Virus record (IMG/VR): IMGVR_UViG_3300042508_000910
DNA: 64,000 bases
DNA from: a virus
Direction: 5' to 3' (one strand)
The translations under genes and the position numbers were made by a program. Numbering within the stretch: the stretch's first letter is position 1; the number at the start of each line of letters is the position of its first letter. Positions 254 to 26,261 of the stretch are shown in pieces. The notes beneath the pieces are model-generated. The model was not told the origin of the DNA. It did not search any database and saw nothing but the letters and a program-made list of their open reading frames with translations.

Positions 254-287
254 GGGCTAGGCGTAAAAAACCTAGCCCTTGTTTTTT
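254..287 (+). terminator. Intrinsic terminator
   Basis: GGGCTAGG-N9-CCTAGCCC hairpin followed by TTGTTTTTT. Confidence 0.7.
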
Positions 288-324
288 GTATTGACTAAAT
301 AAGAATCTGAATTAGACTAAATAG

Positions 325-477: not shown

Positions 478-608
478 TTGATACTAATAAAATAATAAAT
501 TACGAGCGCGGCCAATTATCTAATATTCAAATAGTTGAATTGTTCAAAGAGTTTGCTGATGAAGCAGGTGGAGCATCAGAGCTATTAAGAATACTATTGA
601 CTAAATAA
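474..608 (+). CDS. Small hypothetical protein (44 aa)
   Basis: Read manually (MIDTNKIINYERGQLS...); ATGA overlap with upstream gene. Confidence 0.5.
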   Translation: MIDTNKIINYERGQLSNIQIVELFKEFADEAGGASELLRILLTK

Positions 609-630
609 TAATTTAATATATTCTAAATAG

Positions 631-831
631 ATGCACTATACCATTCAAAAAGTCATAAATAAAAATCCTTATTTATTTGGTGGCGGTTATGATGAGCAAT
701 ATGTTGATAAGCCAGTATATTTGGCTAAATATGTTCTCTGCCAACCAGCAGAAGAATTATATTTCCCTAAATTAAAAGAATGCAAAGCTTGGTTAAATAA
801 AATAAAAGCTACTTATACTAGGATTAAATAA
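631..831 (+). CDS. Hypothetical protein
   Basis: ORF track; TTGACT at 597, 34 nt before ATG. Confidence 0.65.
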   Translation: MHYTIQKVINKNPYLFGGGYDEQYVDKPVYLAKYVLCQPAEELYFPKLKECKAWLNKIKATYTRIK

Positions 832-964
832 ATACTAAATAACTATTGACTAAATAATAAATAGGTGATAGTGAAATAGAAGGGTAAGGATATAACTATT
901 ATTGGTATATATTTTTTAATTTTGGGCTATTGACATTAAATTAATTTGTATTATTATTGAGTTT

Positions 965-1417
965 ATGAAGCTCATTAATACAACCTCATATTGTTCAAAC
1001 AAACTAAAAGAAATTATTAAATGGTGCATGCCTCAAGGAGTATTCCTTAAAGACATCAGAAAGATAGATATTGGTAATACTAAATTAGGTTGGCATGGCA
1101 GAGCATGGGGCAGTATGAGACTTCATGTAGGAGTCCCAGCATATAATAAATATATTAGGCCATATAAGAGTGGTGGATTTAGAGGATATTTAGAGGTTAA
1201 TACTTATACATGGGAAGAGAGCTTAATTGAATTAATTGCTCATGAATTAAGACATATTTATCAATATAAGAAAGGTAAGTTCTATCATGGAGTTAAAAAG
1301 ATAAGAAAATATAACATGGGTACTAGGGCTAAATTAAGTGAAGTAGATGCTAGTTTATATGCTATGAGGAAAGTAAGAGAATACAGAAGGGCTAATATTA
1401 AATTCGATTTGGTTTGA
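965..1417 (+). CDS. Putative zinc metallopeptidase-like protein (HExxH, SprT-like)
   Basis: LIAHELRH motif with downstream E (SEVDA); own promoter at 930. Confidence 0.55.
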   Translation: MKLINTTSYCSNKLKEIIKWCMPQGVFLKDIRKIDIGNTKLGWHGRAWGSMRLHVGVPAYNKYIRPYKSGGFRGYLEVNTYTWEESLIELIAHELRHIYQYKKGKFYHGVKKIRKYNMGTRAKLSEVDASLYAMRKVREYRRANIKFDLV

Positions 1418-1419
1418 CA

Positions 1420-1492
1420 TAAGTTGTTGATTATTATATAGTTAGGGCGGCGGGCCCCCCGCGCGTGTAAGTCGTTGATAATCAAGGGGTTA
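1420..1492. repeat. Paired-palindrome element, copy 1
   Basis: taagttgttgattattatatagtta + 23-bp GC spacer + taagtcgttgataatcaaggggtta. Confidence 0.85.
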
Positions 1493-1613
1493 GCTCATAA
1501 GAGCTTCTAATGATAAACTTTTTTGTGAGAGGATAGCTAACATCCTGGAGGTCAGTATCTTATGACATGAAAAAAGTTCTTGTCACAACTTAAAACTGTG
1601 GTATGATTATTTT

Positions 1614-2471
1614 ATGGCAAGACAAACAAAACCCGCTCAAAGTGTATACGATTTCGATGTACACCAAGAGCCACTCCTCACAACTGACGGCAAGAGGACA
1701 GGATACTTCGGCATGGTACGCCGTGATACCGCCGAACCCATTACGCTCGGAGTTTGCACCGAGCAGTATGGTGTGGTGAAGAATGCAGACCTCATCGAGA
1801 TGGTGGAAACCAACCTCGCCAATCATGACAAGCTCTCGAATTTTACTTCGAAGAAGTTTGTCGTGCGTGACGGCGCTCGTTTCTACGCTTCCTACGACTT
1901 CACCGATTTCAAAACGGAATTGAAGCCTGTGGGCAAGCGAGCCAAGGGTGACATTCTCGGGTTGCGGCTGGTCGTTAACAACAGTTATGACCGCTCGACT
2001 CGTGTTTCGTTGTCTCTCGGCTTCCTTCGTCTCGTCTGCGAGAACGGTATGACCTCGCTTACCAAGGAGTTCAGCATGACCAAGCGCCACACGCTTGCGG
2101 TCAATCTCGACTTCGTTGGTGATGCATTGGCTCATGCTTGTGACAGCGTGGAATCTTCGGCGCAAGTTTTCAACAAGCTAGCGCAGAAGGCTCTCACTAA
2201 CGAACAGGGCTTGAACCTGCTCACCAAGCTGGAAGAGAAAGACATTATCTCTGGCAAGGTGCGTGAGGGGATCGAGGCTGTTTGGCGCAATCCCGCTTAT
2301 GAGGAGGATACGGATCGCAATCTGTATAACCTTTATAATGCGGCAACTCAGTTCCTGACTCGCAATGTCTCAACAGAGCGCTACGAGTACAGCGAGCGTG
2401 TCAACCGTGACCTGCTCAAAGTCTTCAGCGGCAAGACCCGTGACGAAGACCTCTTGAAACTGGTCGCCTAA
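1614..2471 (+). CDS. DUF932-family phage/plasmid protein
   Basis: 285 aa; Y.VV.N, LVVNNSYDRS, RLVCENG, RHT and NLYNLYNAAT motifs typical of DUF932. Confidence 0.8.
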   Translation: MARQTKPAQSVYDFDVHQEPLLTTDGKRTGYFGMVRRDTAEPITLGVCTEQYGVVKNADLIEMVETNLANHDKLSNFTSKKFVVRDGARFYASYDFTDFKTELKPVGKRAKGDILGLRLVVNNSYDRSTRVSLSLGFLRLVCENGMTSLTKEFSMTKRHTLAVNLDFVGDALAHACDSVESSAQVFNKLAQKALTNEQGLNLLTKLEEKDIISGKVREGIEAVWRNPAYEEDTDRNLYNLYNAATQFLTRNVSTERYEYSERVNRDLLKVFSGKTRDEDLLKLVA

Positions 2472-2491
2472 ACTAAAACCGAAACCTTAAC

Positions 2492-2524
2492 AGAGGCGGG
2501 GGACAAAATCCCCCGCTTCTTTTT
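2492..2524 (+). terminator. Intrinsic terminator
   Basis: AGAGGCGGGGGA-caaaa-TCCCCCGCTTCT followed by a T run, just after the DUF932 stop. Confidence 0.8.
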
Positions 2525-2543
2525 GCTTAAATTTGATGAGTTG

Positions 2544-2616
2544 TAAGTCGTTGAGTATCAAGCACTTACGCGCGCGGGGACCGCGCTTTTGTAAGTTGTT
2601 GATTATCAACAGGATA
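2544..2616. repeat. Paired-palindrome element, copy 2
   Basis: taagtcgttgagtatcaagcactta + 23 bp + taagttgttgattatcaacaggata. Confidence 0.9.
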
Positions 2617-2656
2617 TTTTTGTTGACTATTTAAGAAACTGTTGTATATTAAACCT

Positions 2657-2887
2657 ATGACAAACAACAACACCTCAAACTGGGAAGCTCCTAAGTGGAC
2701 TCCTTACTACACCAAGATGATTTTTGGTGAGCGTAGGGCTTACATTATGGACGCTCGAATCCGTGAAGCAACCAAGAAAAGCACATACACCTTGCAAGAC
2801 CTTTACAAGATCAGCAAGGCTTTTAATGTAGCGTTCAAGCTCGTTCCAGAGCCTAGCGAATTTCCAACGGAGATTTCAGCGGCGTAA
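2657..2887 (+). CDS. Hypothetical protein
   Basis: ORF track frame; start moved to ATG 2657, 34 nt after TTGACT at 2623. Confidence 0.65.
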   Translation: MTNNNTSNWEAPKWTPYYTKMIFGERRAYIMDARIREATKKSTYTLQDLYKISKAFNVAFKLVPEPSEFPTEISAA

Positions 2888-2893
2888 AATGTT

Positions 2894-2966
2894 GGGCGTA
2901 TAGCTCAGGGGTTAGAGCGGAGAACTCATAATTCTTTGGTCCTAGGTTCAAATCCTAGTGCGCCCA
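2894..2966 (+). tRNA. tRNA with CAT anticodon (probably Ile2/lysidine type; Met not excluded)
   Basis: GGGCGTA/TGCGCCC acceptor, GAGAA-CTCATAA-TTCTT anticodon arm, GGTTCAAATCC T arm. Confidence 0.9.
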
Positions 2967-2974
2967 AAGCTTTC

Positions 2975-3046
2975 GGATCGCTAGCTCAATGGTAGAGCAG
3001 TTGGCTTTTAACCAATTGGTTGTAGGTTCGAGTCCTACGCGATCCA
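2975..3046 (+). tRNA. tRNA-Lys(TTT)
   Basis: GGATCGC/GCGATCC acceptor, GTTGG-CTTTTAA-CCAAT, GGTTCGAGTCC. Confidence 0.95.
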
Positions 3047-3100
3047 AAAAAGTTTAAGAAAACCCTTGACAAAAAAGTAAACCCTGTTAAACTAAAAACA

Positions 3101-3247
3101 ATGAAAGATTTGTTAGAGCAAAGCTATCTTATAGCTCCTACTTACCATTGGATGCTTAATGGCTATGCAAAACATACAGAATTGACAGAAGAAGATATCA
3201 AGGCATACTTCAAAGCAAAAGCAGAAAAGGAGAATCAAAACAAATGA
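3101..3247 (+). CDS. Small hypothetical protein (48 aa)
   Basis: Read manually; TTGACA-N16-TAAACT promoter at 3066; ATGA overlap with next gene. Confidence 0.6.
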   Translation: MKDLLEQSYLIAPTYHWMLNGYAKHTELTEEDIKAYFKAKAEKENQNK

Positions 3248-3639
3248 AACATATCAAACTATATAAACAAAACCTCGGAGCCCATTGGGTTATTGGAATT
3301 AAAGGTTCCAAAGATCGAATTGAGCAATTCCATAATCGAGTCTACAATTGGGGTGGAACAAAAGGCGAGCTTCAATGGATGGCAGATGACTTCGCTTATT
3401 TTTGGATTACCCTTGAGAAGTTGGAGCGTGTGATGTTTAAGTATGTTATGAATAGTATGAGCGATAAACTTGGTAAAAAATTTCGTGGTTCCAAGGGCGG
3501 ACTAAAGGAAGTTGTGTTGAATCGTGTGAAGAATACGATCAGCAAGATTCCTAGCGAGTTCTTTGTTCGCACAGCACAGGTTGAGCCTACCTATGCTCTC
3601 GGACAAGTTTCGGCTGAAAAGTTAGATACTGACAGCTAA
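3244..3639 (+). CDS. Hypothetical protein, FHN..YN.GGT family paralog 1
   Basis: IEQFHNRVYNWGGTKGEL, shared with ORFs at 9645 and 12492. Confidence 0.75.
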   Translation: MKHIKLYKQNLGAHWVIGIKGSKDRIEQFHNRVYNWGGTKGELQWMADDFAYFWITLEKLERVMFKYVMNSMSDKLGKKFRGSKGGLKEVVLNRVKNTISKIPSEFFVRTAQVEPTYALGQVSAEKLDTDS

Positions 3640-3645
3640 AAAATC

Positions 3646-3718
3646 CGCCTAGTAGCCCAATGGCAGAGGCAAACGACTTAAAATCGTTATAGTGTCAGTT
3701 CGAGTCTGACCTAGGCGA
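3646..3718 (+). tRNA. tRNA-Leu(TAA), short variable loop
   Basis: CGCCTAG/CTAGGCG acceptor, AACGA-CTTAAAA-TCGTT, 5-nt variable region, GTCAG-TTCGAGT-CTGAC. Confidence 0.85.
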
Positions 3719-3728
3719 AAACTTTGTT

Positions 3729-3800
3729 GCTCCTATAGCTTAATGGATAAAGTGAATGTCTTCTAAACATTCTATGCAGGTTCAATTCCTGCTAGGAGCA
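3729..3800 (+). tRNA. tRNA-Arg(TCT)
   Basis: GCTCCTA/TAGGAGC acceptor, AATGT-CTTCTAA-ACATT, GCAGG-TTCAATT-CCTGC. Confidence 0.92.
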
Positions 3801-3850
3801 TTAGTTCAAAAAGATAATCTATTTAAATCTAATCTAGTGTAACTATAAGT

Positions 3851-4372
3851 ATGAATAAAACTCTGTTAAAGCAATATATAGATTCTGGCTATTCTTCTTA
3901 TAAGATAGCTAATATTTCTAATAAAGGCCAAACTACAATAAGATACTGGCTCAAAAAATATAATTTATTTACCAAAGGAAACAAAAGATATACTAAAATA
4001 ATAAATGGAGATACTCATATTAAATGTGGAAACTGTGATAAATTTTATTCAAAAGATAATTTCTATAAAAAAACAAAAAAGTCATTTATGAGTTATTGCA
4101 AAGAATGCTTTAATGAATACGCAAAAGAGAGATGGAAAGCTAGAAAACGTAAGGCTATTGAATATAAAGGCGGTAAATGCTCTTCTTGTGGCTATAATAA
4201 ATATCCAGATGTTCTTGAATTTCATCATAGAGATGCAGAAACAAAAGAATTTGATTGGAAAAAACTTCGTCAGATGTCTTGGGATAAAGTAACAAAAGAA
4301 TTAGATAAGTGTGATATGCTTTGCGCTAATTGTCATAGAGAGCGACATTATGAAATATTTTCACAAAAGTAG
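3851..4372 (+). CDS. HNH endonuclease (N-terminal HTH and Zn-binding CxxC pairs)
   Basis: KCSSCGY...LEFHHRD...LCANCHRERH; sits directly after the tRNA pair; GTGTAA motif at 3837. Confidence 0.85.
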   Translation: MNKTLLKQYIDSGYSSYKIANISNKGQTTIRYWLKKYNLFTKGNKRYTKIINGDTHIKCGNCDKFYSKDNFYKKTKKSFMSYCKECFNEYAKERWKARKRKAIEYKGGKCSSCGYNKYPDVLEFHHRDAETKEFDWKKLRQMSWDKVTKELDKCDMLCANCHRERHYEIFSQK

Positions 4373-4579
4373 AAGTCTTATGTAAAGTCTTTATGTGAGA
4401 TGGTTCGAAAGAAATTTTTGGTGGATTTTTCTTATTATGATTTGTGGAAGTATATCGTGGGGATTGATGATTGAGATCTGGAAAATAGTGATTACACATC
4501 TCAAATAGTTTTTCCAAAATATTTTTGGGCATATAAATTAATATTGAAATATAGTTCATGCTACTGTAAAATACTATAT

Positions 4580-4738
4580 ATGAAGCATAATAATAGATTC
4601 GACAAGAAAATCGAAGAGAAAATCTTAAGCGAGATCGATCATAAAGATCTACGCCAAATAGATCAAATGCTTGCCGAATTAGAGATCATCTGGAAAAAGT
4701 GGGTTAAGTCTCATCCAGATTGGAAGTCTCACGAATAA
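4580..4738 (+). CDS. Small hypothetical protein
   Basis: ORF track frame; ATG 4580 after TTGAAA-N17-TAAAAT; its stop is the first TAA of element copy 3. Confidence 0.6.
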   Translation: MKHNNRFDKKIEEKILSEIDHKDLRQIDQMLAELEIIWKKWVKSHPDWKSHE

Positions 4739-4808
4739 GTTGTTGATACTCAAGTAGTTACAAAAGCGGGGAGCCCCGCGTCGTAAGTCGTTGACAGTCA
4801 ATGAGATA
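4736..4808. repeat. Paired-palindrome element, copy 3
   Basis: taagttgttgatactcaagtagtta + 23 bp + taagtcgttgacagtcaatgagata. Confidence 0.9.
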
Positions 4809-4848
4809 CAAAACTTGACAATTATTAAATCTATATTACAATTTGTAT

Positions 4849-4971
4849 ATGCGGTTAGTTAAAACTATTATTTGTTTTCCTTTTGTTCAGATTCATTGTG
4901 AGGGACAAAGCCTTTTAACTTGGAAGCTGTGGCACATTATCTGCTATATTCTGGCATCAATGTATCTATGA
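4849..4971 (+). CDS. Small hydrophobic hypothetical protein (40 aa)
   Basis: Read manually; TTGACA(4815)-N16-TACAAT-N6-ATG; ATGA overlap with next gene. Confidence 0.5.
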   Translation: MRLVKTIICFPFVQIHCEGQSLLTWKLWHIICYILASMYL

Positions 4972-5309
4972 AAGCAAAACACAAAGTATATTATAACTTG
5001 CATAAACATTGTTTAAGTATTATGCTTAAAGGCAAAGTCCTACAACATAGTTCAGAGTTCTTTCTTAAAGATGTTGATTTTAGGGTGAGTCAAGCAGGTC
5101 GCTCCAGGGTTCTGCGAGAGAAGCGTAAGAATGTTCACGCTTTTGTTTGTGGCACTCCAGATGAAGGTTGGCCTATTGACCAACTAGAGCGTCGTGTAAC
5201 CTATAATCCTTATAAGTATCATAGTTTTGTTTATGCAGACACAAAGAAACCAGTATACAAGGCTAAATGGGCTGGTGTTATTGGTCGTGAAATTTTCGTA
5301 TTAAACTAA
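4968..5309 (+). CDS. Conserved phage hypothetical protein
   Basis: VYYNLHK...GRSRVLREKRKNVHAFVCG...VTYNPYK, a motif set I recognise from many phages; start at ATG 4968. Confidence 0.75.
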   Translation: MKAKHKVYYNLHKHCLSIMLKGKVLQHSSEFFLKDVDFRVSQAGRSRVLREKRKNVHAFVCGTPDEGWPIDQLERRVTYNPYKYHSFVYADTKKPVYKAKWAGVIGREIFVLN

Positions 5310-5343
5310 TTGACAAACAGAAAAAACATAGTATAATTATAAA

Positions 5344-5559
5344 ATGGAAATCACTAAAACCAAAAAGACCAACGGAGGGTATGAGTTCTTTGGCTCTGAC
5401 CCTAAAACTAAAGCGGAAATTTTGTTGGGCAACCTCAAGGCTTTGCCCGAAGGCGGATACGGAATCTTCAAGAGCGATGCCAAGGCGGGTAAAGATGTTC
5501 AAGTCTCCTATATTGGTGCTAACTTGAATATCGAATCCTTTTTGCCCAAGGAGCTGTAA
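5344..5559 (+). CDS. Hypothetical protein
   Basis: ORF track; consensus TTGACA-N16-TATAAT promoter at 5310. Confidence 0.7.
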   Translation: MEITKTKKTNGGYEFFGSDPKTKAEILLGNLKALPEGGYGIFKSDAKAGKDVQVSYIGANLNIESFLPKEL

Positions 5560-5918
5560 TGAAAGTCCTCGAAGAATCTTTCTCTAGCAAAGGCTTCAAA
5601 CTTCAGCAGGTTAGGCGTGATGGCGACATCGCCATCTACAAAAAGCAACTCGATGACCCCGAATGTGAAAACTATCATTATGAAGTTATCGCAATCAAGC
5701 GTCACAATGGTTATGAGATTGCTGGCGTAAAGATGCCTCCCGCTGAAATGTATCCTAGCGATAGTCAATGGGGCGATTGGGCTTTCACTTGCACTACTAT
5801 CGAAGATGCCAACAGGCGTTTCGGTGAATTGCAAGAGAAACTAACAAACTATAATGCAACCGCAATTCTGCCTAGTGGTGAGAAGCGTGGGCGTGGTCGT
5901 CCTCGCAAAATCGCTTGA
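5559..5918 (+). CDS. Hypothetical protein with C-terminal AT-hook
   Basis: Ends KRGRGRPRKIA; TAATG coupling with upstream gene. Confidence 0.7.
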   Translation: MKVLEESFSSKGFKLQQVRRDGDIAIYKKQLDDPECENYHYEVIAIKRHNGYEIAGVKMPPAEMYPSDSQWGDWAFTCTTIEDANRRFGELQEKLTNYNATAILPSGEKRGRGRPRKIA

Positions 5919-5949
5919 CAGAATAACAAAACATATTACAATCACAACT

Positions 5950-6186
5950 ATGACCTATAAGTGTGCTGTAAGTGGTGAGGCAATCCCTCCAGAGAGAGTC
6001 GAGGCTCTGCAAGTCCTTGGCGTTCCAGAAGCTCTTTGGACTAAAAAAGAGCATAGTCAAACACGAAAGCTCAAAGCTGTTTATGCTGGCGATGATGGTA
6101 GTAATGATATTATTATCTGCGACAATGTAGATGGTGGCAATCTGTTTGAAAATGAAGCAATAGCGGAGACTGAAATTGACAACTAA
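5950..6186 (+). CDS. TraR/DksA-finger-like small protein (degenerate)
   Basis: KCAVSGEAIPPERVEAL resembles the CxxCGxxIPxxRLxA motif; promoter at 5915. Confidence 0.45.
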   Translation: MTYKCAVSGEAIPPERVEALQVLGVPEALWTKKEHSQTRKLKAVYAGDDGSNDIIICDNVDGGNLFENEAIAETEIDN

Positions 6187-6334
6187 ATTTATCGTTTTGC
6201 GTGATGGCATCAGAGTTAGCGATGATATGCACGATAAGATGGAATCTGCCGAACAAGAGGCAAATCATTGGCGTGAGATCATCAAGCGTTGGCCTGATGG
6301 CACAAAAGTCACGATCAAAAAAATCGGAGGCTGA
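6176..6334 (+). CDS. Small hypothetical protein (52 aa, TTG start)
   Basis: Read manually (MTTKFIVLRDGIRVSDD...RWPDGTKV); GGAG 7 nt upstream. Confidence 0.55.
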   Translation: MTTKFIVLRDGIRVSDDMHDKMESAEQEANHWREIIKRWPDGTKVTIKKIGG

Positions 6335-6352
6335 CACTAGCTACGGAGCTAT

Positions 6353-6443
6353 GCGAGGGTCGTCTAACTGGTTAAGACCCCAGACTTATACTCTGGTCGC
6401 TCTAGATTTGGGCAAAATGAAGGTTCGAATCCTTCCCCTCGTA
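6353..6443 (+). tRNA. tRNA-Ile(TAT) with long variable arm
   Basis: GCGAGGG/CCCTCGT acceptor, CCAGA-CTTATAC-TCTGG, 22-nt variable region, GAAGG-TTCGAAT-CCTTC. Confidence 0.85.
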
Positions 6444-6466
6444 AATCCTTAACAATCAAAGAGAAA
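6442..6466. repeat. Solo degenerate palindrome overlapping the tRNA 3' end
   Basis: taaatccttaacaatcaaagagaaa; reverse strand reads ctctttgattgttaaggatttacg. Confidence 0.5.
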
Positions 6467-6517
6467 AAAAAGAAAAAAAATCTTTGACAAAAAAGAAAGA
6501 TATGGTAGGATAAGACT

Positions 6518-6778
6518 ATGACAAAACAAAACAACATTACCCTATGGGAGATGATTAAGGGGCTGTTCTGGTTCGTGCTAGGACAGAGGTATATCATCAA
6601 CTATACGCCTTACAATGGAACCGAGGCTTATACTTACATCATCGGTGTTCCTACAACCCATTACATTTCCAAGAAGGGCAAAAAGCTCTTTATTACTTGG
6701 TGCTTTTCTGGTCGTGACGGATTCGGACATCGTCAGTTCCGTTATGATAGAATTGCTGGTGGTCTCTCGCCAGTATAA
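6518..6778 (+). CDS. Hypothetical protein, possibly WYL-like
   Basis: Promoter at 6484; C-terminal HRQFRYDRI resembles the WYL R.FR.DRI motif. Confidence 0.55.
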   Translation: MTKQNNITLWEMIKGLFWFVLGQRYIINYTPYNGTEAYTYIIGVPTTHYISKKGKKLFITWCFSGRDGFGHRQFRYDRIAGGLSPV

Positions 6779-6826
6779 CAACAGAGAGATGGGTGGGGTT
6801 TTTTATTTCCCCTTCCCTTCATATAG

Positions 6827-6859
6827 AAAGGGCGAGACCTAAAAAATCTCGCCTTTTTT
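6827..6859 (+). terminator. Intrinsic terminator
   Basis: AAAGGGCGAGA-N9-TCTCGCCTTTTTT. Confidence 0.7.
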
Positions 6860-6892
6860 ATTTGACGCTAAATTAAATTATGATAAGATTTA

Positions 6893-7027
6893 AATAGTTC
6901 TTTCCGCAATGAGTGAGGATGACTTCCTCCATAGAGCCATTGAAGCCCCAATGCCCAGAGTCTGAGGCAATTAAAGGTGGGAATATATTCTCTTTGATTC
7001 TAGAGCAGAGAGAGCGGAAGAATTATT
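6893..7027 (+). ncRNA. Putative structured ncRNA of unknown family
   Basis: Own promoter (TTGACG at 6862, N16, TAAGAT); closing stem AATAGTTCTTTCCGC/GCGGAAGAATTATT; internal hairpins. Confidence 0.5.
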
Positions 7028-7205
7028 TATTACGCCAGCCGTTTCTGTGATTGAAGTTCCAATCTAACAAAGCCCATTCAAATCCAACATCGCGTCCAGC
7101 TTTCTCACTTTCAATCCATTTGTGTTTTAAGATTTCTTCTCGTTCTTTGAGGAATTGTTTATATAATGCAGAGTTTTCTAGTATACCGCTGACTTTTGAG
7201 TTCAT
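7023..7205 (-). CDS. DUF4032-like small protein
   Basis: EREEILKHKWIESEKAGRDVGFEWALLDW matches the small DUF4032-type proteins I associate with Verrucomicrobiota. Confidence 0.7.
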   Translation of the reverse strand: MNSKVSGILENSALYKQFLKEREEILKHKWIESEKAGRDVGFEWALLDWNFNHRNGWRNK

Positions 7206-7289
7206 ATCTAAATTCTAATTTAGATTACACCAAATAGCAAATATGATTTGCAATATAGGTAAATAAATAATATAATAATACAACATATT

Positions 7290-7361
7290 GGGGCTATCGT
7301 CTAATGGTTAGGACTCCTCGCTTTCAATGAGGGTGTATCGGTTCGAATCCGTTTAGCCCTA
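7290..7361 (+). tRNA. tRNA-Glu(TTC)
   Basis: GGGGCTA/TAGCCCT acceptor, CCTCG-CTTTCAA-TGAGG, GGTTCGAATCC. Confidence 0.9.
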
Positions 7362-7378
7362 TATACTTGTGATAGTTA

Positions 7379-7451
7379 TAAGTGCTTAATTATCAAAGAT
7401 TTACAGCGGCGGGCTCCCTTGTTTCATAACTCTTTGATATTCAATGAAATT
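7379..7451. repeat. Paired-palindrome element, copy 4
   Basis: taagtgcttaattatcaaagattta + 23 bp + taactctttgatattcaatgaaatt. Confidence 0.8.
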
Positions 7452-7491
7452 TAAATGTAGACATAAATTAAAACTATGATACTATATAAAA

Positions 7492-7959
7492 ATGACAACC
7501 ACACTAACACAAAAAGTCAAAAAAACAATGCGTGGACATTTAGCAGCAACAATCAGGACTTCGTTCTCCACATCGAAGTCTCGCCAAACTCCTTCTCTTA
7601 GGATGGGGGTTTATTGCTTGATTAAAGCAAGCCCAAGGTGGGGATGGCGTGTTTATATCGGTGCATCTCGTGATATTCGAGTGCGTTGGTATCAACACCG
7701 CTCTCTTCATGGAAATGGAACGGGTTGGAACATTGGAATGTTTCAAGTCGTAAGCGTTCCATCTTCACCTATGCTTAATTATATTGAGCAGATAACAATC
7801 AACACAGCCAAAGAACTTGCAAACAAGTACAAGTATAAGATTCAAAACAAGATTGATCCTTTGTATCAAATTATTGATACAGATTCAAAAATTGAAAAGA
7901 AACTTATCAACATATTTGCACGATTCAAACTTGGAGAAAGGGGATTTAGCCTAGTTTAA
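7492..7959 (+). CDS. GIY-YIG nuclease family protein
   Basis: GVYCLI...VYIGASRDIRVRWYQH...EQ..I motif. Confidence 0.8.
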   Translation: MTTTLTQKVKKTMRGHLAATIRTSFSTSKSRQTPSLRMGVYCLIKASPRWGWRVYIGASRDIRVRWYQHRSLHGNGTGWNIGMFQVVSVPSSPMLNYIEQITINTAKELANKYKYKIQNKIDPLYQIIDTDSKIEKKLINIFARFKLGERGFSLV

Positions 7960-7977
7960 TTTGTTAGTGAACTGGCG

Positions 7978-8050
7978 TAAGTCGTTGATTATCAGCGGCT
8001 TACGTCAGCGACCTCCCTGCGGTTGTAAGTCATTGATACTCAACGAGATT
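7978..8050. repeat. Paired-palindrome element, copy 5
   Basis: taagtcgttgattatcagcggctta + 23 bp + taagtcattgatactcaacgagatt. Confidence 0.9.
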
Positions 8051-8100
8051 TAACTGCAAAAAAAACTTGTCACAAGAAAAAAAAGTGATAAAGTTTATCT

Positions 8101-8736
8101 ATGTTCAAAAACAAAAAGCAAGCCGAAGCTATTGTCGGCACATTATCTAAACCTTCGAAGATGCCAGGTTATGCTTATTCAACGCCAGCGAAGCGTTGCA
8201 TTATCGGACAGAAAATGCGTCAAGTTGCGGGAAGCATTTGTGCGTTCTGCTATGCTCTTAAAGGGCGTTATGTTTTCCCTAATGTTCAAGCGGCGATGGA
8301 AAAGCGTTTCGCTTCTCTTACTCACGATCTTTGGGTGGATGCGATGACTTACCTTATTAACAAAGCAAACAACCCTCACTTCCGTTGGCACGATTCGGGA
8401 GATTTGCAAGGCATTTGGCATCTCGAAAAGATTGTCAAAGTCGCAAAGAATCTTCCACATATTTCTTTTTGGTTGCCTACTCGTGAATACTCTTTTGTTT
8501 CAGAGTATATAGCAAAAGGCGGTGAGGTTCCTTTTAATCTTACTATCCGCTTGTCTGCTCTTATGATGAACGGCCCCGCACCCGTTGGCTTGGCTGAGAG
8601 ACTTGGCCTTTGTGTTAGTGGTGCGAGCAACAAGGGAGAGTTTAATTGCCCATCCTCTAAACAAGGCAACAAGTGCGGTTCGTGCCGTGCGTGTTGGCAT
8701 AAGAATGAGTTTGCAATTAACTACAAAAAGCATTAA
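8101..8736 (+). CDS. Phage Gp88-like Cys-rich protein (radical-SAM-like)
   Basis: SKMPG, CAFCYALKGRY, FRWHDSGDL, FWLPTRE and CGSCRACW motifs. Confidence 0.75.
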   Translation: MFKNKKQAEAIVGTLSKPSKMPGYAYSTPAKRCIIGQKMRQVAGSICAFCYALKGRYVFPNVQAAMEKRFASLTHDLWVDAMTYLINKANNPHFRWHDSGDLQGIWHLEKIVKVAKNLPHISFWLPTREYSFVSEYIAKGGEVPFNLTIRLSALMMNGPAPVGLAERLGLCVSGASNKGEFNCPSSKQGNKCGSCRACWHKNEFAINYKKH

Positions 8737-8797
8737 GATGTTCCAATGGAAATCTTAATCTTAATCCTTGGAATTATAATCAGCTTGTTAATCTAAA

Positions 8798-8947
8798 ATG
8801 AATATTGAAAAATTATTAAACGAAAATCTTGAAACCTTTTATCCGTGGAGCGACAACGATAATCCTCCACTCGATGCTGGAAAAACTTTTCTACAAAAAG
8901 AAAGAGAGATAGACGAATTTTTTGAGGGTTGGCGAGCCTCAATGTAA
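8798..8947 (+). CDS. Small hypothetical protein (49 aa)
   Basis: Read manually (MNIEKLLNENLETFYPW...); its stop is the first TAA of element copy 6. Confidence 0.5.
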   Translation: MNIEKLLNENLETFYPWSDNDNPPLDAGKTFLQKEREIDEFFEGWRASM

Positions 8948-9017
8948 GTCTCTGATTATCAAAGACTTACGAGAGCGCCCTCCCCGCCGCCGTAAGTCGT
9001 TGATAGTTAACTACTTA
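8945..9017. repeat. Paired-palindrome element, copy 6, at the convergence of the two early blocks
   Basis: taagtctctgattatcaaagactta + 23 bp + taagtcgttgatagttaactactta. Confidence 0.9.
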
Positions 9018-9124
9018 CGCTTACGCTCCCAAAGCCATACAGCAAAGTTGATAAGGGTTTCTAATGAGGCAAGAGCAAGGAAAAAAATTCCAAGCCCCGC
9101 GATTGCGAGTATATATTTTTCCAT
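9011..9124 (-). CDS. Small membrane protein (37 aa)
   Basis: Read manually: MEKYILAIAGLGIFFLALASLETLINFAVWLWERKRK; GGAG upstream. Confidence 0.5.
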   Translation of the reverse strand: MEKYILAIAGLGIFFLALASLETLINFAVWLWERKRK

Positions 9125-9126
9125 AA

Positions 9127-9399
9127 TTATTCTCCGCAGATTTCTGGATCACCAGCCCAACCGAAGTCTTCCATCTGGTAGCACCCGCCACCATAGTCCT
9201 CGTCTGTGCCGTGACCCGCAGAGGCCATAGCAGAATCGAAGTCGCCATCCATCGATTCGTCCACATCCGAGAGGTTAGATTGAGAAGATGCGAGGATGCG
9301 CTCGTCATCACGCGTCATCTCGTTAAGGATGTCGCGCACATCTAACCGAGTCAGCATGTGCTGGTTCATCCACTCCTTGAGTGAGGCTTTGTAGTCCAT
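9127..9399 (-). CDS. Acidic hypothetical protein
   Basis: C-terminal part of track ORF 9127..9573; start MDYKASL after GGAGG; SAMASAGHGTDEDYG motif. Confidence 0.65.
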   Translation of the reverse strand: MDYKASLKEWMNQHMLTRLDVRDILNEMTRDDERILASSQSNLSDVDESMDGDFDSAMASAGHGTDEDYGGGCYQMEDFGWAGDPEICGE

Positions 9400-9400
9400 A

Positions 9401-9625
9401 TTATTTGACCTCCATTCCATTCTGACAGGTGAGGCGAAAAGGAACAGCCTTCGCGCCGAAGAAGTTGGTGACCTCGGTATCCCTCTCATCGTAAGAGGGA
9501 GCCATCTTGTCGAGCATCTCGTTGATGGCATCAGGGGAGTTGATGTAGTCGAAGAAAGCCTCCGCATCAGCAAAGGCTTCGGTGCAGTTAATCGAGGCTA
9601 GGTAGGATATGTCGTTGTTGTTCAT
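9401..9625 (-). CDS. Hypothetical protein
   Basis: ORF track; TTGACA at 9659, 34 nt before ATG. Confidence 0.7.
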   Translation of the reverse strand: MNNNDISYLASINCTEAFADAEAFFDYINSPDAINEMLDKMAPSYDERDTEVTNFFGAKAVPFRLTCQNGMEVK

Positions 9626-9644
9626 ATAGGTAATGTATCACAGA

Positions 9645-10010
9645 TTACGATTCTGTCAAAGATTTTCTATAAGAATATTCCATTGAATGACAACGTCTTA
9701 CAAAAGTTGCTGGTTTTATTTCTGAAATGATTTGATCTGCTAGGGCTTCGCCGTGAGAGTTCCAATCACCTTGAGCAAAAGATGATTCGAGATTCGTGGC
9801 GAGTGCGAGAGATAAAGCCCTGCGAAACTTCGCTGGTTCTGCATAAAAGTAAAATGCTTTCTCGCCACCAAGATTTTTCAAACGATAATTAGTCCCGCCA
9901 AAATTGTAAATTGCATTGTAGAATCTTTCAGCAGATGCGAAATCAGTCTCTAATAAATAGGCGAGGTTAGGGCCAAAAGGTTCAGAGAAGATTCTTATTT
10001 TGTTTTGCAT
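9645..10010 (-). CDS. Hypothetical protein, FHN..YN.GGT family paralog 2
   Basis: AERFYNAIYNFGGT...GGEKAFYFYAEP; promoter at 10044. Confidence 0.75.
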   Translation of the reverse strand: MQNKIRIFSEPFGPNLAYLLETDFASAERFYNAIYNFGGTNYRLKNLGGEKAFYFYAEPAKFRRALSLALATNLESSFAQGDWNSHGEALADQIISEIKPATFVRRCHSMEYSYRKSLTES

Positions 10011-10051
10011 AAAAAAAGGATATCAGATTTTTTATTTTTGTCAAGCTTTTG

Positions 10052-10124
10052 TAAGTTGTTGATAGTCAAGGACTTGCGCGCGCGGGGGCTCTTCGTGCGT
10101 AAGTCGTTGATGCTTAGAGACTTA
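10052..10124. repeat. Paired-palindrome element, copy 7
   Basis: taagttgttgatagtcaaggacttg + 23 bp + taagtcgttgatgcttagagactta. Confidence 0.9.
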
Positions 10125-10263
10125 CAACAGGTCTCGAAGGTTCAAACAACTCGCAGAAAGATAGTAAAAAAATCTTTCCCTCAAAAAGTTTTTATTCTCG
10201 CCGTGAAAAACTGCGAGACGAAAAGTTTTTTTATTTATTTGGAAAAGAATCTTTTTCATCTTT

Positions 10264-10554
10264 TTAGACTCCTTCCGCTTTGGCGATGTCTCTGCCAATT
10301 TCAACCGAGAGGTTGAGTTGATCCACGAGGTGCTGATTCTTTGCCAGCTTCGTGATGGTCACAGCTTTTTCGGTTGCCCAATCCCAGCGAGAGGAATATC
10401 CTGCACCTTGACTCACGCTGATTTTGATGAAGGTGTTTTCGTCTTTCACATAAAGGATTTCCTCGGTAGGAAGCCAAGGAGTTTTCGTCCTGTCATTGGT
10501 CAAGAGGTAGAAGGTTCCGATTTCGGGTTGAATTGCTTTGTTCTTATCTTTCAT
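10264..10554 (-). CDS. Hypothetical protein
   Basis: ORF track; TTGACA at 10588, 34 nt before ATG. Confidence 0.7.
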   Translation of the reverse strand: MKDKNKAIQPEIGTFYLLTNDRTKTPWLPTEEILYVKDENTFIKISVSQGAGYSSRWDWATEKAVTITKLAKNQHLVDQLNLSVEIGRDIAKAEGV

Positions 10555-10594
10555 ACTTTTATCCTATCAGATTTTTTGATTTTGTCAACTTTTA

Positions 10595-10619
10595 TTTTGC
10601 GTTGATCTTCAACGACTTA
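10595..10619. repeat. Solo palindrome
   Basis: ttttgcgttgatcttcaacgactta; right arm is perfect consensus. Confidence 0.75.
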
Positions 10620-10766
10620 GGACTTCTTTCCATAAAGTTTTGCCTTTTTCAAGGCGTGAAGTCTGGCTTTCTCTGGATTGTTTCCTTTCCATTCAGCCCA
10701 ACGCTTGCGGTTAAGTTCCCACTTGCGTTGGTTATCTTCGTATCTTTTAATGTCATCTTGATTCAT
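10617..10766 (-). CDS. Small basic hypothetical protein
   Basis: Track ORF with start moved to MNQDDIK; its stop is the TAA of the solo palindrome. Confidence 0.55.
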   Translation of the reverse strand: MNQDDIKRYEDNQRKWELNRKRWAEWKGNNPEKARLHALKKAKLYGKKS

Positions 10767-10767
10767 T

Positions 10768-11037
10768 TTATTTATTACCTTTCTTGATGAATTCTGCTTT
10801 TTTAAGGTAGATCGTTGTGGTCTTACCTTTATCCTCACCTTCGAGGATTTCAGCAACAGCGGTTTCTGCTGTAGTTTTATAAACGAGTTTGACTAAAACT
10901 CCTTCGTATAAGTAAACATCACCGAAAAAGGTTTCGGTGTTTGTGTAGACTTTAGAAGCATCTACTTTGCTTGATGCCTTACGCATCGTTTCACGCATCA
11001 GCTTTCGCTGATAGTTCCAATTTATCATTCTATGCAT
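10768..11037 (-). CDS. Hypothetical protein
   Basis: Track ORF with start moved to MHRMINW after AAGGA. Confidence 0.6.
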   Translation of the reverse strand: MHRMINWNYQRKLMRETMRKASSKVDASKVYTNTETFFGDVYLYEGVLVKLVYKTTAETAVAEILEGEDKGKTTTIYLKKAEFIKKGNK

Positions 11038-11044
11038 TGTCTTA

Positions 11045-11191
11045 TTATCCTTTCTTAAGAGTTTCGATTTCGTCAATTTTGACGATGATTTTTTCCATCC
11101 GCTTTGCGGATTCTTGGTAAGCCTTGGAAATTTCTTCCAAGCGGCGAATTGTTTCATTGAGGTCGAATTTGATTTTGGTTTTTGTTTTCAT
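11045..11191 (-). CDS. Small coiled-coil protein, paralog of 12951..13124
   Basis: MKTKTKIKFDLNETIRRLEEI... Confidence 0.65.
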   Translation of the reverse strand: MKTKTKIKFDLNETIRRLEEISKAYQESAKRMEKIIVKIDEIETLKKG

Positions 11192-11260
11192 TTTTTTCTT
11201 CTTTCTTTCTACCTTTAATCTATCACATTTTTCATTTTTCGCAAGAAAAATCTTCATTTA

Positions 11261-11333
11261 AATTTCATTGACCATCAACGAGTTACAACGCAAGGGAGGC
11301 GGCTTATGTAAGTTCTTGATAGTTAAGAACTTA
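11261..11333. repeat. Paired-palindrome element, copy 8
   Basis: aatttcattgaccatcaacgagtta + 23 bp + taagttcttgatagttaagaactta. Confidence 0.85.
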
Positions 11334-11459
11334 GGTTTTATGCGTTCCATCAGGTTTTGGTCAAAGATCATTCGTGATCTTTTCGCTTCCATCAGGTTTT
11401 GTCGCAAGATCGAACTGGAAAGCATAACATTAAAATGTTGTGCCCAATTTATTTGGATA

Positions 11460-11532
11460 TAACATGTTGATTATCAAACACTTACAGAGACTGCCTCCCG
11501 CCTTGCGTAAGTCGTTGATGTTGAACAACTTA
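11460..11532. repeat. Paired-palindrome element, copy 9
   Basis: taacatgttgattatcaaacactta + 23 bp + taagtcgttgatgttgaacaactta. Confidence 0.85.
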
Positions 11533-11545
11533 CGAAAGGATGATT

Positions 11546-11926
11546 TTAGAGGGGTAAAACTTTGATCTCTAAAGATTCTTCCAGATATTTTTTTGAGGGC
11601 TTGAAAAAAATCACACGCTCGAAAACTTTTTCGGTTGTGACATTTTCGGGGAGTGAAACAGTTTCGCCCTCGCTGTCTGTGCCAACGATCAACGCTTTGC
11701 CAGCGAAAGGTTGTGAACCGATTCCAAACTTAAAGTAGGCTTGAGATTCTGAATCTTTCAAGAGTCCTTCGTCATCCAGAATCATGTCCACGCCATCAGC
11801 GAGACCTGCCATCGTGATGATCTCGCAATCAATGAGAGTGCGAAGGGTTTGGAATTTAGTGTCCACAAGCGTCACCTGCGACACAGTTTCGGTGAATGGG
11901 TCAATGAGTATTGCTCTCGCCATCAT
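11546..11926 (-). CDS. DUF3846-like protein
   Basis: ILIDP...DDEGLL...PFAGKALIVGTD.EGET.SL pattern. Confidence 0.7.
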   Translation of the reverse strand: MMARAILIDPFTETVSQVTLVDTKFQTLRTLIDCEIITMAGLADGVDMILDDEGLLKDSESQAYFKFGIGSQPFAGKALIVGTDSEGETVSLPENVTTEKVFERVIFFKPSKKYLEESLEIKVLPL

Positions 11927-11927
11927 A

Positions 11928-12077
11928 TTAGATGCTCCTTGTTTTGAGTAGATCGCTCAACTCGTTAAGGTAAACTCCAGCCGTGTTGCTGAAGCGGTTA
12001 TCGTTTAGCTCTTTGATGATATTGACTAGACGACTAGCCAACTCGATCACTTCTTCGTTGTTGATGGTTTTATTCAT
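11928..12077 (-). CDS. Small hypothetical protein (49 aa)
   Basis: Read manually (MNKTINNEEVIELASRL...); TTGACA at 12111, 34 nt before ATG. Confidence 0.6.
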   Translation of the reverse strand: MNKTINNEEVIELASRLVNIIKELNDNRFSNTAGVYLNELSDLLKTRSI

Positions 12078-12114
12078 ATGTTTAGTTTATCATACTTTTC
12101 TTTGTTGTCAAGTC

Positions 12115-12492
12115 TTACAAGCGGTAAAACTTGTGATTCTGAATGACTGCTATGGGCTTCTCACCCTTCGACCACTTGGGCGACACTTGGAATGTGTGGT
12201 AATGGTTCGCACCATTCACGACATCGGGCATCTTCTTTTGTGCCACAAGTTTCGCAAGATGGATTGCGTTCTGTGCTTGAGGATTAGCCAAGAGCTTCCG
12301 CTTCTGTGCTTCAGTCACTCCACCATTCCAGAAGCTGAATTGCTTTGGTGCAAGACAGACTTGGGATGCTGTCTGCTTACGCTCTATCGCTCTTGTCTGA
12401 ATAACAGAGGCAACGCCAGCCATGCCCTCGATGCCTTCGCCTCGTGCTTCGCCAAGGATGGTCAAAGCTATAACAAGAATCTCTGCGGTCAT
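12115..12492 (-). CDS. Cell wall hydrolase, SleB/Hydrolase_2 family
   Basis: TILGEARGE..GM..VASVI..R, QFSFWN, GANHYH, W...I.NHKFY. Confidence 0.88.
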   Translation of the reverse strand: MTAEILVIALTILGEARGEGIEGMAGVASVIQTRAIERKQTASQVCLAPKQFSFWNGGVTEAQKRKLLANPQAQNAIHLAKLVAQKKMPDVVNGANHYHTFQVSPKWSKGEKPIAVIQNHKFYRL

Positions 12493-12911
12493 TAGTCTCT
12501 CCCGTTGCTGATGGCTCCGCAGTAGTCGCTAGGCTTCTCTGCGGTGATGCTTCCAAGGTTAAAGACATCGGTGCTGATAGCTGTGCGAAGGAATCGCCCA
12601 TCCTTAATTGTATCGAACTTGTCTTTTGCTTTTTGCTTCGCAAGGCTAAGAAGTCCACCCTTCAAGCCCTTTGCTTTGATCTTATTGCATAGAGCATACA
12701 GGGCAACTTTGGTCATCGCTTCTAGCACGGCTTCGGGCTGTGCGTAGAAGTAGAACGCTTTGCCGTTGCCCATATCGTGCAACTCTCCATTGGTTGCACT
12801 ATGGTTATACATAGCATTGTGAAATGTCTCGATGTGCTTCTTATCGCCTTCCAAGAGGAAAGCGGTAGTATTGCCGAAGGGTTGTTTGGTGATGGTGATT
12901 TGGTTTTTCAT
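12492..12911 (-). CDS. Hypothetical protein, FHN..YN.GGT family paralog 3
   Basis: IETFHNAMYNHSATNGEL..GNGKAFYFYAQP; start at MKNQIT. Confidence 0.75.
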   Translation of the reverse strand: MKNQITITKQPFGNTTAFLLEGDKKHIETFHNAMYNHSATNGELHDMGNGKAFYFYAQPEAVLEAMTKVALYALCNKIKAKGLKGGLLSLAKQKAKDKFDTIKDGRFLRTAISTDVFNLGSITAEKPSDYCGAISNGRD

Positions 12912-12950
12912 ATAGCTTATATTGCTTTCTGGTTTGGTTTTCGTCAAGGG

Positions 12951-13124
12951 TTATTTGATGACAGGTTCGCCCATATACTTCTGATGGGCTTCGTCCTTCT
13001 TCGCTTGGGCTTCTGCCACGATGTTATCGAGGCGTTGGGCAGAGGCTTTGTAGCCTTCTGCGATGGCGTTGAGCCTGCGGATAGTTTCGTTGATGTCGAA
13101 CTTGATGTTTGCTTTAACTTTCAT
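12951..13124 (-). CDS. Small coiled-coil protein (57 aa), paralog of 11045..11191
   Basis: Read manually: MKVKANIKFDINETIRRLNAIAEGYKASAQRLDNIV...; promoter at 13158. Confidence 0.7.
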   Translation of the reverse strand: MKVKANIKFDINETIRRLNAIAEGYKASAQRLDNIVAEAQAKKDEAHQKYMGEPVIK

Positions 13125-13175
13125 ACTCTTAATCTATCACACTTTAGGGATTCTGCAAGGGTTTTTCTTCAGTTA

Positions 13176-13200
13176 AATTTCATTGATAGTCAACGACTTA
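13176..13200. repeat. Solo palindrome at the edge of the early region
   Basis: aatttcattgatagtcaacgactta. Confidence 0.8.
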
Positions 13201-13460
13201 GGTAGCCCATATTTTTTTTATAGAATACCCTACCCATTTTTGAAAAGCTGGGGAACTTATGTTTTGTAAAAGAGGGGGGAGGGCCTGAATTTCATTCGCT
13301 ACTCTACTAATAATCCTTTCTTTATATACCCCCCCTACCCTTTTTAGAAAAATAATAGAGAAAAAGCTTATTAAAATTCATTTAAATCTTAAAAATTCGG
13401 GGGCCTATATATTTTTTTAACCTTTTATTGATATAAGGTCTTATTGTGTAATTAAGTCTA

Positions 13461-13703
13461 ATGAGAAAATGGATACCTATATTTCTTGGTTCAATTGGTT
13501 GTTTTTTTATACTTAAAACACTATTTAAGTTCGATAAAAGCAATAACACAGTAGTAGTTGCTCCTGCTAACAACGAAGAGGTTAGAAGAGCTATTCCTGT
13601 AATAACAAAAGCTGTCGAAAACCCTGCGCCCAACGCTTCAGATGCTTTGCCAGCCAGAAACTATCTACAGAGTAGCCAAAACAATATAAATAGCAAAAGG
13701 TAA
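13461..13703 (+). CDS. Small protein with N-terminal hydrophobic anchor
   Basis: ORF track; GTGTAA 15 nt upstream. Confidence 0.55.
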   Translation: MRKWIPIFLGSIGCFFILKTLFKFDKSNNTVVVAPANNEEVRRAIPVITKAVENPAPNASDALPARNYLQSSQNNINSKR

Positions 13704-13706
13704 TTT

Positions 13707-13850
13707 ATGGCCCAAAAGAAAAAAGTAAACAAATTAACAAAAAAAGAGTGCGAAGATATCTTAGCGCGTCTTTCTAATAGCAAAGATTCCCTATACTATA
13801 ATCATGTTGAAATAAGGCTTAAATTCCTTAATGAGTCTGATCTAAAATAA
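13707..13850 (+). CDS. Small hypothetical protein (47 aa)
   Basis: Read manually (MAQKKKVNKLTKKECEDIL...); fills the gap between two genes. Confidence 0.5.
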   Translation: MAQKKKVNKLTKKECEDILARLSNSKDSLYYNHVEIRLKFLNESDLK

Positions 13851-13852
13851 AT

Positions 13853-26256: not shown

Positions 26257-26261
26257 AGAAA

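Follow-up and report, generated by a model that had tools for sequence, protein, structure and literature searches.

The early region of an uncultured phage carries a paired-palindrome element

The DNA analysed here is a 64,000-nucleotide stretch of the IMG/VR virus record IMGVR_UViG_3300042508_000910 (called the window below), which comes from an uncultured phage of ~170 kb and is AT-rich, with a G+C content of 29-44% when taken in 2-kb windows and mostly ~30-35%. Its early region contains six tRNA genes within positions 2893-7362 and a dispersed element of 73 bp, composed of a palindrome (25 bp), a spacer (23 bp) and a second palindrome (25 bp). An original prediction, made from the letters alone, had listed nine paired copies at 1420, 2544, 4736, 7379, 7978, 8945, 10052, 11261 and 11460. 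All nine were recovered as 25-23-25 units, and the two palindromes start 48 bp apart in 9/9 of them, as had been claimed. A consensus scan of the window found 18 palindromes at up to 5 mismatches, where block shuffles expect 0.03, and all of them lay inside 1420-13200; outside this region the scan of the window found no match below 8 mismatches, which is the chance level, in agreement with the prediction that the other 50 kb has none. Three solo palindromes had also been proposed, and those at 10595 and 13176 are good, with 4 mismatches each, while the one at 6442, whose 7 mismatches put its sequence by itself at chance level, gains credibility only through its surroundings, since it directly follows tRNA-Ile and lies 17 bp ahead of a promoter.

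The window spacers are GC-rich, as predicted (74% G+C), with a central tract of a G-run, W and a C-run. The palindrome consensus was likewise found, with the correction that arm positions 4 and 7 are almost unconstrained, giving the half-site TAA-S-TC-N-TTGA. The element has a polarity: it starts at or just after a stop codon or tRNA gene and ends just ahead of a promoter, and in two cases (4736 and 8945) its own TAA is the stop codon of the preceding open reading frame (ORF). The elements, the predicted promoters beside them and one small cassette are as follows; modules A to D are gene blocks discussed further below.

1420-1492, plus strand: paired element, starting 2 nt past the stop of ORF 965-1417; lacks a phased promoter, the next -35 box being 87 bp off
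2544-2616, plus strand: paired element at the module A/B boundary
2572-2586: terminator-like hairpin with a T-run in the spacer of element 2544, the sole correctly oriented one among the window spacers
2623-2650, plus strand: sigma70-like promoter 6 bp past element 2544; leaderless, ATG 6 nt after the -10 box
4736-4808, plus strand: paired element at the module B/C boundary; its first TAA is the stop of ORF 4544-4738
4815-4842, plus strand: sigma70-like promoter 6 bp past element 4736
6442-6466, plus strand: weak solo palindrome (7 mismatches) abutting tRNA-Ile, at the module C/D boundary
6484-6511, plus strand: promoter 17 bp past solo 6442; leaderless ATG
7379-7451, plus strand: paired element, 16 nt past tRNA-Glu
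7458-7485, plus strand: promoter 6 bp past element 7379; leaderless ATG at 7492
7978-8050, plus strand: paired element, 18 nt past the stop of ORF 7492-7959
8067-8094, plus strand: promoter 16 bp past element 7978; leaderless ATG at 8101
8945-9017, no strand assigned: paired element between two convergent genes, the stop of ORF 8798-8947 being its first TAA; no promoter
10017-10044, minus strand: promoter 7 bp from element 10052; leaderless ATG
10052-10124, minus strand: paired element serving minus-strand genes; the counterpart spacer in relative L004 holds a 159-bp cassette
10561-10588, minus strand: promoter 6 bp from solo 10595; leaderless ATG
10595-10619, minus strand: solo palindrome (4 mismatches)
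11261-11333, minus strand: paired element; a promoter-like site (11217-11244) lies 16 bp off
11334-11459, minus strand: promoterless mini-cassette between two elements; in L004 gone here and present inside the counterpart of element 10052
11460-11532, minus strand: paired element, 13 nt past the stop of ORF 11546-11926
13176-13200, minus strand: solo palindrome (4 mismatches), 17 bp from promoter 13131-13158; leaderless ATG

The element family and its double-stranded character

Other genomes have the element too. Scanning IMG/VR for the exact pattern revealed at least 119 phage loci that carry it, most of them with many paired copies, and 595 palindromes were collected. Partner palindromes in these loci start 50 bp (97 pairs), 48 bp (64), 58 bp (24), 41 bp (12), 51 bp (11), 53 bp (6) or 34 bp (4) apart, and when the window was added to the 119 loci, 64 of the 66 pairs in the 47-49 bp range were at exactly 48 bp. 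Spacing is fixed within a lineage and differs between lineages. When 25 contigs with the element were placed on a PhoH tree, the 50-bp spacing was widespread, with the remaining spacings appearing in sublineages; the 58-bp class formed a single, fully supported clade, and a 48-bp contig neighbours a 50-bp contig. The spacings equal 3.2, 3.9, 4.6, 4.8, 5.0 and 5.5 helical turns. They share no helical phase, so the paired palindromes keep no common rotational relation, which undercuts the earlier argument that fixed spacing reflects a tetramer bridging two dyads.

In two complete relatives of ~170 kb the element is confined to ~12-14 kb: the palindromes of G006 (171,916 bp) lie in 124.7-136.4 kb, with one stray copy elsewhere, and those of a complete relative of 166,536 bp with terminal repeats lie in 17.9-32.2 kb. 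Megablast of window positions 1-12000 and 20000-40000 against 50,697 deposited phage genomes gave no match, nor did tblastn of two proteins, so that no close relative of the window was seen among deposited phage genomes in DNA or protein comparison; a 41-nt piece of the element returned only chance-level matches in a similarity search.

The collection allowed the two arms of the palindrome to be compared. Among 522 unique palindromes the arms vary independently, and most departures from the consensus are one-sided and break the pairing. Compensatory double changes numbered 60 against 52 expected at pair 4/22, 39 against 33 at pair 7/19 and 6 against 12 at pair 6/20. A formal test on 58 elements of the 48-bp class (alignment A1) gave the same answer, with 71.8% paired cells under a three-hairpin model versus 72.0 +/- 0.6% for shuffled partners, and a long hairpin joining the first palindrome (P1) to the second (P2) was worse than shuffles. 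Since the arms vary without compensation, we conclude from this pattern that the palindromes would be double-stranded DNA sites read by a dimeric protein, not hairpins, as the original prediction had proposed.

Palindromes are phased with early promoters

The promoters past the elements are predicted to be sigma70-like (TTGACA, 16 bp, TAnnnT), often with the extended -10 TG. At 9 of the 12 window sites, the proximal palindrome lies 6-7 or 16-17 bp from the -35 box, placing the palindrome centre at -53/-54 or -63/-64. Over all loci (n = 44, including many orthologues) this distance was 6-7 bp in 22 cases, 16-18 bp in 8, 25-27 bp in 7 and 36 bp in 2, a period of ~10 bp. Exactly 6 nt separate the -10 box from the ATG at 8/9 phased window sites and in 24/32 cases over all loci, suggesting that the early mRNAs are leaderless. 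The leaderless starts of the window fall in 2650-2660, 6511-6520, 7485-7494, 8094-8103, 10008-10017, 10552-10561 and 13122-13131.

This periodicity fits the role in early transcription that had been listed among the candidates, and points to architectural control. A face-of-helix rule beside RNA polymerase would be expected of a bending protein that shapes the upstream DNA. In three loci of the 50- and 58-bp classes (L089, L065 and L106), a further intergenic motif was observed near the elements, TTGACA followed after 5-7 nt by a CTAACA or CTAACG box and often present several times per gap; it may serve as a phage-specific promoter or as a second site of regulation.

Palindrome arms carry IHF-type cores

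A position matrix was built from 143 partner sites, each chosen solely for its good mate palindrome and therefore less biased. Information is concentrated on TAA, TTGA, TCA (the fourth core base being weaker) and TTA, while positions 4, 7, 19 and 22 are almost unconstrained. From the centre outward, each arm reads (W)(A)TCAA-N4-TTA, which corresponds to the core of the IHF consensus of E. coli, WATCAANNNNTTR, as quoted in a study of Dickeya IHF (PMC9452768). The free arm positions coincide with the NNNN of that consensus, and predicted Dickeya IHF sites in the same study are identical to element arms. In sequence, the palindrome thus amounts to a pair of IHF cores that mirror each other around one central A/T base. 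At least one arm meets the strict consensus in 369/595 palindromes (62%). A distance of 9 bp separates the invariant TT step from the invariant AA step, which we take to be the distance between the IHF-induced kinks in the IHF-DNA crystal structure. At 8 of the 12 window sites the promoter-proximal palindrome keeps its distal arm and has an A/T-rich end on its proximal arm, a suggestive resemblance to the canonical asymmetric IHF site, strong examples of which have an A/T-rich tract 5' of the core.

No HU/IHF-family protein (PF00216) was found in two complete relatives and one 83%-complete relative, so a phage-encoded HU/IHF was rejected for these three and the binding protein would be cellular. 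Pfam searches of the tested early window ORFs found no helix-turn-helix, ribbon-helix-helix or other DNA-binding domain. A scan of 185,579 bacterial and archaeal genomes revealed the same 25-bp palindrome in chromosomes. With up to 2 mismatches allowed, 709 copies were counted in one Microscillaceae metagenome-assembled genome (MAG); the two Fibrobacter genomes in which copies were counted had 7-8 each (reversed-pattern control 0), Saprospiraceae have repeated copies, and Flavobacteriaceae have a conserved copy between two tRNA genes. At 13/37 Fibrobacter loci a conserved ORF of 136-150 aa, without a known family, lies ~50-220 bp from the palindrome, which is mostly on its upstream side; the genes flanking the Fibrobacter copies belonged to no informative family. 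None of 150 other Bacteroidota genomes had the palindrome at up to 1 mismatch, and a general host motif of this phylum was rejected. Paired copies also occur in a few MAG contigs, which probably belong to phages and were binned wrongly. Its presence in unrelated bacterial chromosomes argues for a widely shared cellular protein, and the distribution would fit one whose sites are used by lineage-specific repeats. Judged by its sites, the binder would be a dimeric DNA-bending protein, most likely one of the host IHF/HU family (DNABII). The complete relative G006 also has a transfer-messenger RNA (L243 10338-10725) with an atypical 24-residue tag ending in SVA, which did not point to a host.

A less likely, though serious, alternative is that the palindromes are operators of a dedicated non-IHF dimeric regulator, either phage-made after the early genes or injected, and that the likeness to IHF sites is coincidental. 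Such a regulator would shut off or coordinate all early promoters, in the manner of the KorB operators on RK2, the SPO1 TF1 sites or the mycobacteriophage stoperators. Symmetric sites of homodimer type in helical register next to -35 boxes would suit it, as would the conservation of positions that are N in the IHF consensus, and the lineage-specific spacer length could track a co-evolving phage protein. Many small early ORFs without a known family could supply the gene, but the Pfam searches detected no DNA-binding domain in those tested, and none of the proteins that the lineages have in common (PhoH, a zinc-ribbon protein and a sigma-like factor) is an obvious dimeric operator binder. A dedicated phage regulator would also leave the chromosomal palindromes of the Microscillaceae MAG and of Fibrobacter unaccounted for.

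Cassette order and content change at the elements

We compared cassette order among relatives of ~66-90% DNA identity. The window and L048 share the module order A-B-C-D, with A at 929-2609, B at 2590-4808 and C at 4969-6443, whereas L061, L039 and L113 have A-C-B-D; C also precedes B in L049 and L006, two partial loci of which the first gave no match to D and the second does not include A. The junctions of this change are at elements 2544 and 4736 and at solo 6442. In the B/C swap, P1 goes with the upstream module and P2 with the promoter goes with the downstream module, the whole spacer remaining with the upstream one. In addition, L004 is without window positions 11334-11496, the junction lying inside elements, and it has an insertion of 159 bp exactly within the spacer of its element-10052 counterpart, which is the window mini-cassette 11334-11459. 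The crossover position therefore varies, being mid-spacer in one event and at or beyond the spacer-P2 boundary in another. Shuffling of cassettes by recombination, one of the proposals of the original prediction, is thus supported by these comparisons, with breakpoints inside elements; for another, a role in the handling of first-injected DNA, we found no evidence.

Consistently, among 358 junctions in all loci, gene adjacency was conserved at 0.36 across elements versus 0.64 elsewhere (Mann-Whitney p ~7e-23, kinship ignored). The DUF932 gene has elements on both sides in ~21/23 loci and at least 8 different neighbours per side, while the block of PhoH, zinc-ribbon and sigma-like genes is collinear and element-free. 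This block is common to element-bearing phages of all spacing classes; in G006 (L247) it lies at 140.7-144.7 kb, just beyond the cassette region, and comprises PhoH, a zinc-ribbon protein with an acidic tail, a sigma-70-like factor and two further conserved proteins.

No tyrosine or serine recombinase was found in the two complete relatives and the 83%-complete one (PF00589 is absent from G006, G007 and G008), and a phage-encoded enzyme of either type was rejected for these three. Given this absence and the varying crossover position, homologous exchange between short repeats appears the likelier mechanism of the cassette changes, by analogy with what has been proposed for the promoter-early stem-loops (PeSLs) of T4. 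Neither target-site duplications nor flanking direct repeats were seen at the nine window copies, and the observed polymorphisms always involved a cassette together with an element, never a bare element as for a miniature inverted-repeat transposable element (MITE).

It is improbable, in our estimate, that the elements are instead sites of site-specific cassette exchange, or are mobile themselves in an integron-like or MITE-like way, with the GC-rich dyad as the crossover core and the flanking bends assembling the synapse. The cassette of L004, which carries its own half-elements and sits exactly inside a spacer while lying between two other elements in the window, is what such exchange would produce, and contig L014 has spacers that are exact reverse complements of each other; the 48-bp-class spacer is moreover dyad-symmetric without covariation. 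The B/C swap, however, leaves the whole spacer upstream, so that no single crossover point is fixed, and neither a recombinase in the examined relatives nor target-site duplications around the window copies were there to be seen. Cassettes with their own promoters also differ from those of integrons. One could equally doubtfully imagine a phage integron-like platform built for promoter-bearing cassettes, whose attachment sites would be the elements and whose GC dyad core would be cut by a recombinase of an unrecognised family or by a hijacked host enzyme; IHF-type bends would then fold the synapse, which would account for the rigid, lineage-specific spacer.

The cassettes of the window carry diverse cargo: a metallopeptidase-like protein (965-1417, weak match), DUF932 (1614-2471), a relative of mycobacteriophage L5 gp82 (4920-5309), a GP88-family protein (8101-8736), DUF3846 (11546-11926) and a SleB-type cell-wall hydrolase domain (12115-12492). 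Three paralogues of one unannotated family of ~120-150 aa occupy separate cassettes (3244-3639, plus strand; 9645-10010 and 12492-12947, minus strand), and the family occurs in 14 related loci. The promoterless mini-cassette, of ~80-126 bp, has two direct repeats of ~16 nt around an 8-bp hairpin and may be a small RNA or a protein-binding unit; L004, L006, L053 (twice) and L113 have it at different positions that are likewise bounded by elements, and L019, L049 and L088 match it in part. The tRNA-Ile (anticodon TAT) next to solo 6442 is unusually long at 93 nt, both in the window (6352-6444) and in the complete relative G006 (L246 7307-7399), which suggests an extra arm or insertion. Among the late genes, five consecutive overlapping ORFs of 265-276 aa (32008-36065, plus strand) form an apparent tandem paralogue array.

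Spacers mostly fold at chance level

Spacers of the 41, 48, 50, 51 and 53 classes folded no better than composition-matched shuffles and had no T-runs; those of the window lineage gave -6.6 versus -6.2 kcal/mol in shuffles. The 48-bp-class spacer consensus (G-run, W, C-run) is dyad-symmetric, and covariation is absent from it. In contrast, spacers of the 58-bp class form a clean GC hairpin with a T- or A-run (-13.6 versus -8.0 kcal/mol in shuffles), so that a GC hairpin with a T-run, the hallmark of an intrinsic terminator, occurs in these relatives and within the window elements only at 2572-2586. Two of the nine window spacers look terminator-like, the other one (4766-4779) facing the opposite way, and the gene at 1614-2471 has its own canonical terminator at 2492-2520, ahead of element 2544. 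An Rfam scan of positions 1-14000 found tRNAs only, even at E up to 1. A role as RNA, with three hairpins acting as terminators, 3'-end protectors or RNase III sites between early genes, would suit the placement after stop codons, the 58-bp-class spacers and the hairpin at 2572-2586, yet we regard it as very improbable in view of the missing covariation in palindromes and spacer, the chance-level folding in five spacing classes, the wrongly oriented or absent terminators in the window, the terminator already present before element 2544 and the empty Rfam scan.

A proposed boundary module of bend sites

Our preferred reading, which we hold with moderate confidence, is that the element is a double-stranded DNA boundary module of IHF-type sites that would provide both the architecture of early promoters and the crossover points of cassettes. 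Each 25-bp palindrome would bind a dimeric DNA-bending protein, likely of the host IHF/HU family, and the two bend sites would clamp the GC-rich spacer of fixed length. The module would lie where one early transcription unit ends and immediately upstream of the next leaderless sigma70-type promoter, with its proximal site always on one face of the helix; a sharp bend there would mould the DNA upstream of the promoter around RNA polymerase. As to its effect, we can only infer that the bend could activate the promoter, insulate it or shield it from the silencing of AT-rich DNA. Found again at each cassette boundary, this ~73-bp repeat would act as a crossover point too, likely through homologous recombination over short repeats, and recombination at its copies would reorder, delete and relocate cassettes among related phages.

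Several observations weigh against this boundary-module reading. Three of the 12 window sites lack a phased promoter, and the promoter counts over loci, with their many orthologues, are not independent, so that p-values overstate independence. The strict IHF consensus is met by only 408/1190 arms (34%), the 'WA' ahead of TCAA is weakly conserved (0.24 and 0.09 bits), and conservation is seen at positions 5-6 and 20-21, where the IHF consensus has N. Two independent IHF sites do not explain a spacer whose length is fixed while its sequence drifts, and the rigid lineage-specific length may point to a further component.

If the boundary-module reading is true, a large clade of uncultured environmental phages of ~110-320 kb would set up every early unit via a host nucleoid protein and a 73-bp module, and the same module would be the seam for exchange of accessory cassettes, probably for host takeover or anti-defence, joining gene regulation and genome mosaicism in one sequence element. 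The element would then be a simple marker of early regions and cassette boundaries in metagenomic phage genomes, and a testable case of repeated protein-binding sites driving modular evolution.

Comparison with known systems

A literature search by topic and by arm sequences found no published description of the composite element. The original prediction had called it unrecognised, which holds for the composite but not for its arms, each of which carries the IHF consensus core. Several known systems nevertheless resemble it in part.

Canonical IHF sites lie upstream of promoters such as lambda PL, Mu Pe and ilvPG. The elements share with them the core consensus and the face-of-helix placement upstream of sigma70 promoters, but canonical sites are single and asymmetric, whereas the cores here are mirrored and come in pairs of fixed spacing, about a dozen times over within a single region. 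The ilvGMEDA site is taken here as it is cited in PMC6907758.

Like integron attC sites and pdif modules, the elements are repeats that bound small accessory cassettes of variable order. Unlike them, they come without an integrase in the examined relatives and without a folded single-strand signature or covariation for any fold, and their cassettes bear promoters. The core sites of tyrosine recombinases have an overlap region of 6-8 bp between the arms, whereas the arms of the element are separated by 3 bp.

BIME-1 or RIB (also RIP), a bacterial interspersed mosaic element (BIME) of E. coli, has the order repetitive extragenic palindrome (REP), IHF site, inverted REP, according to PMC3333891 and to Boccard and Prentki (1993) as cited there; BIMEs have been reported as terminators, mRNA stabilisers and topological insulators (PMC3333891). 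Both are dispersed and composite, being built of GC-rich palindromic units together with IHF or IHF-type sites, and both lie at the 3' ends of transcription units. The order is reversed here, however, with two IHF-type sites around one GC unit, and the elements are phage-borne rather than chromosomal. REPs form hairpins and are mobilised by RAYT transposases, while the elements show neither a hairpin signal nor a transposase.

The PeSLs of T4-type phages, as described in PMC2839356 and PMC4122927, have breakpoints attributed to homologous recombination between repeats. They too are short composite intergenic repeats near early promoters in variable regions of large lytic phages, and both kinds of repeat mark the breakpoints of indels and replacements between close relatives. 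A PeSL as described there, though, joins a promoter to a terminator stem-loop, whereas the element consists of two protein-type palindromes and a GC spacer that folds at chance level, the promoter being adjacent to the repeat and outside it, and 7/9 window spacers are not terminator-like; the phage clade differs, and there is no sequence likeness. While lacking the defining features of both systems, and also those of integron attC sites, intrinsic terminators and MITEs, the element is closest to the PeSLs in behaviour and closest in composition to BIME-1/RIB with its parts reversed.

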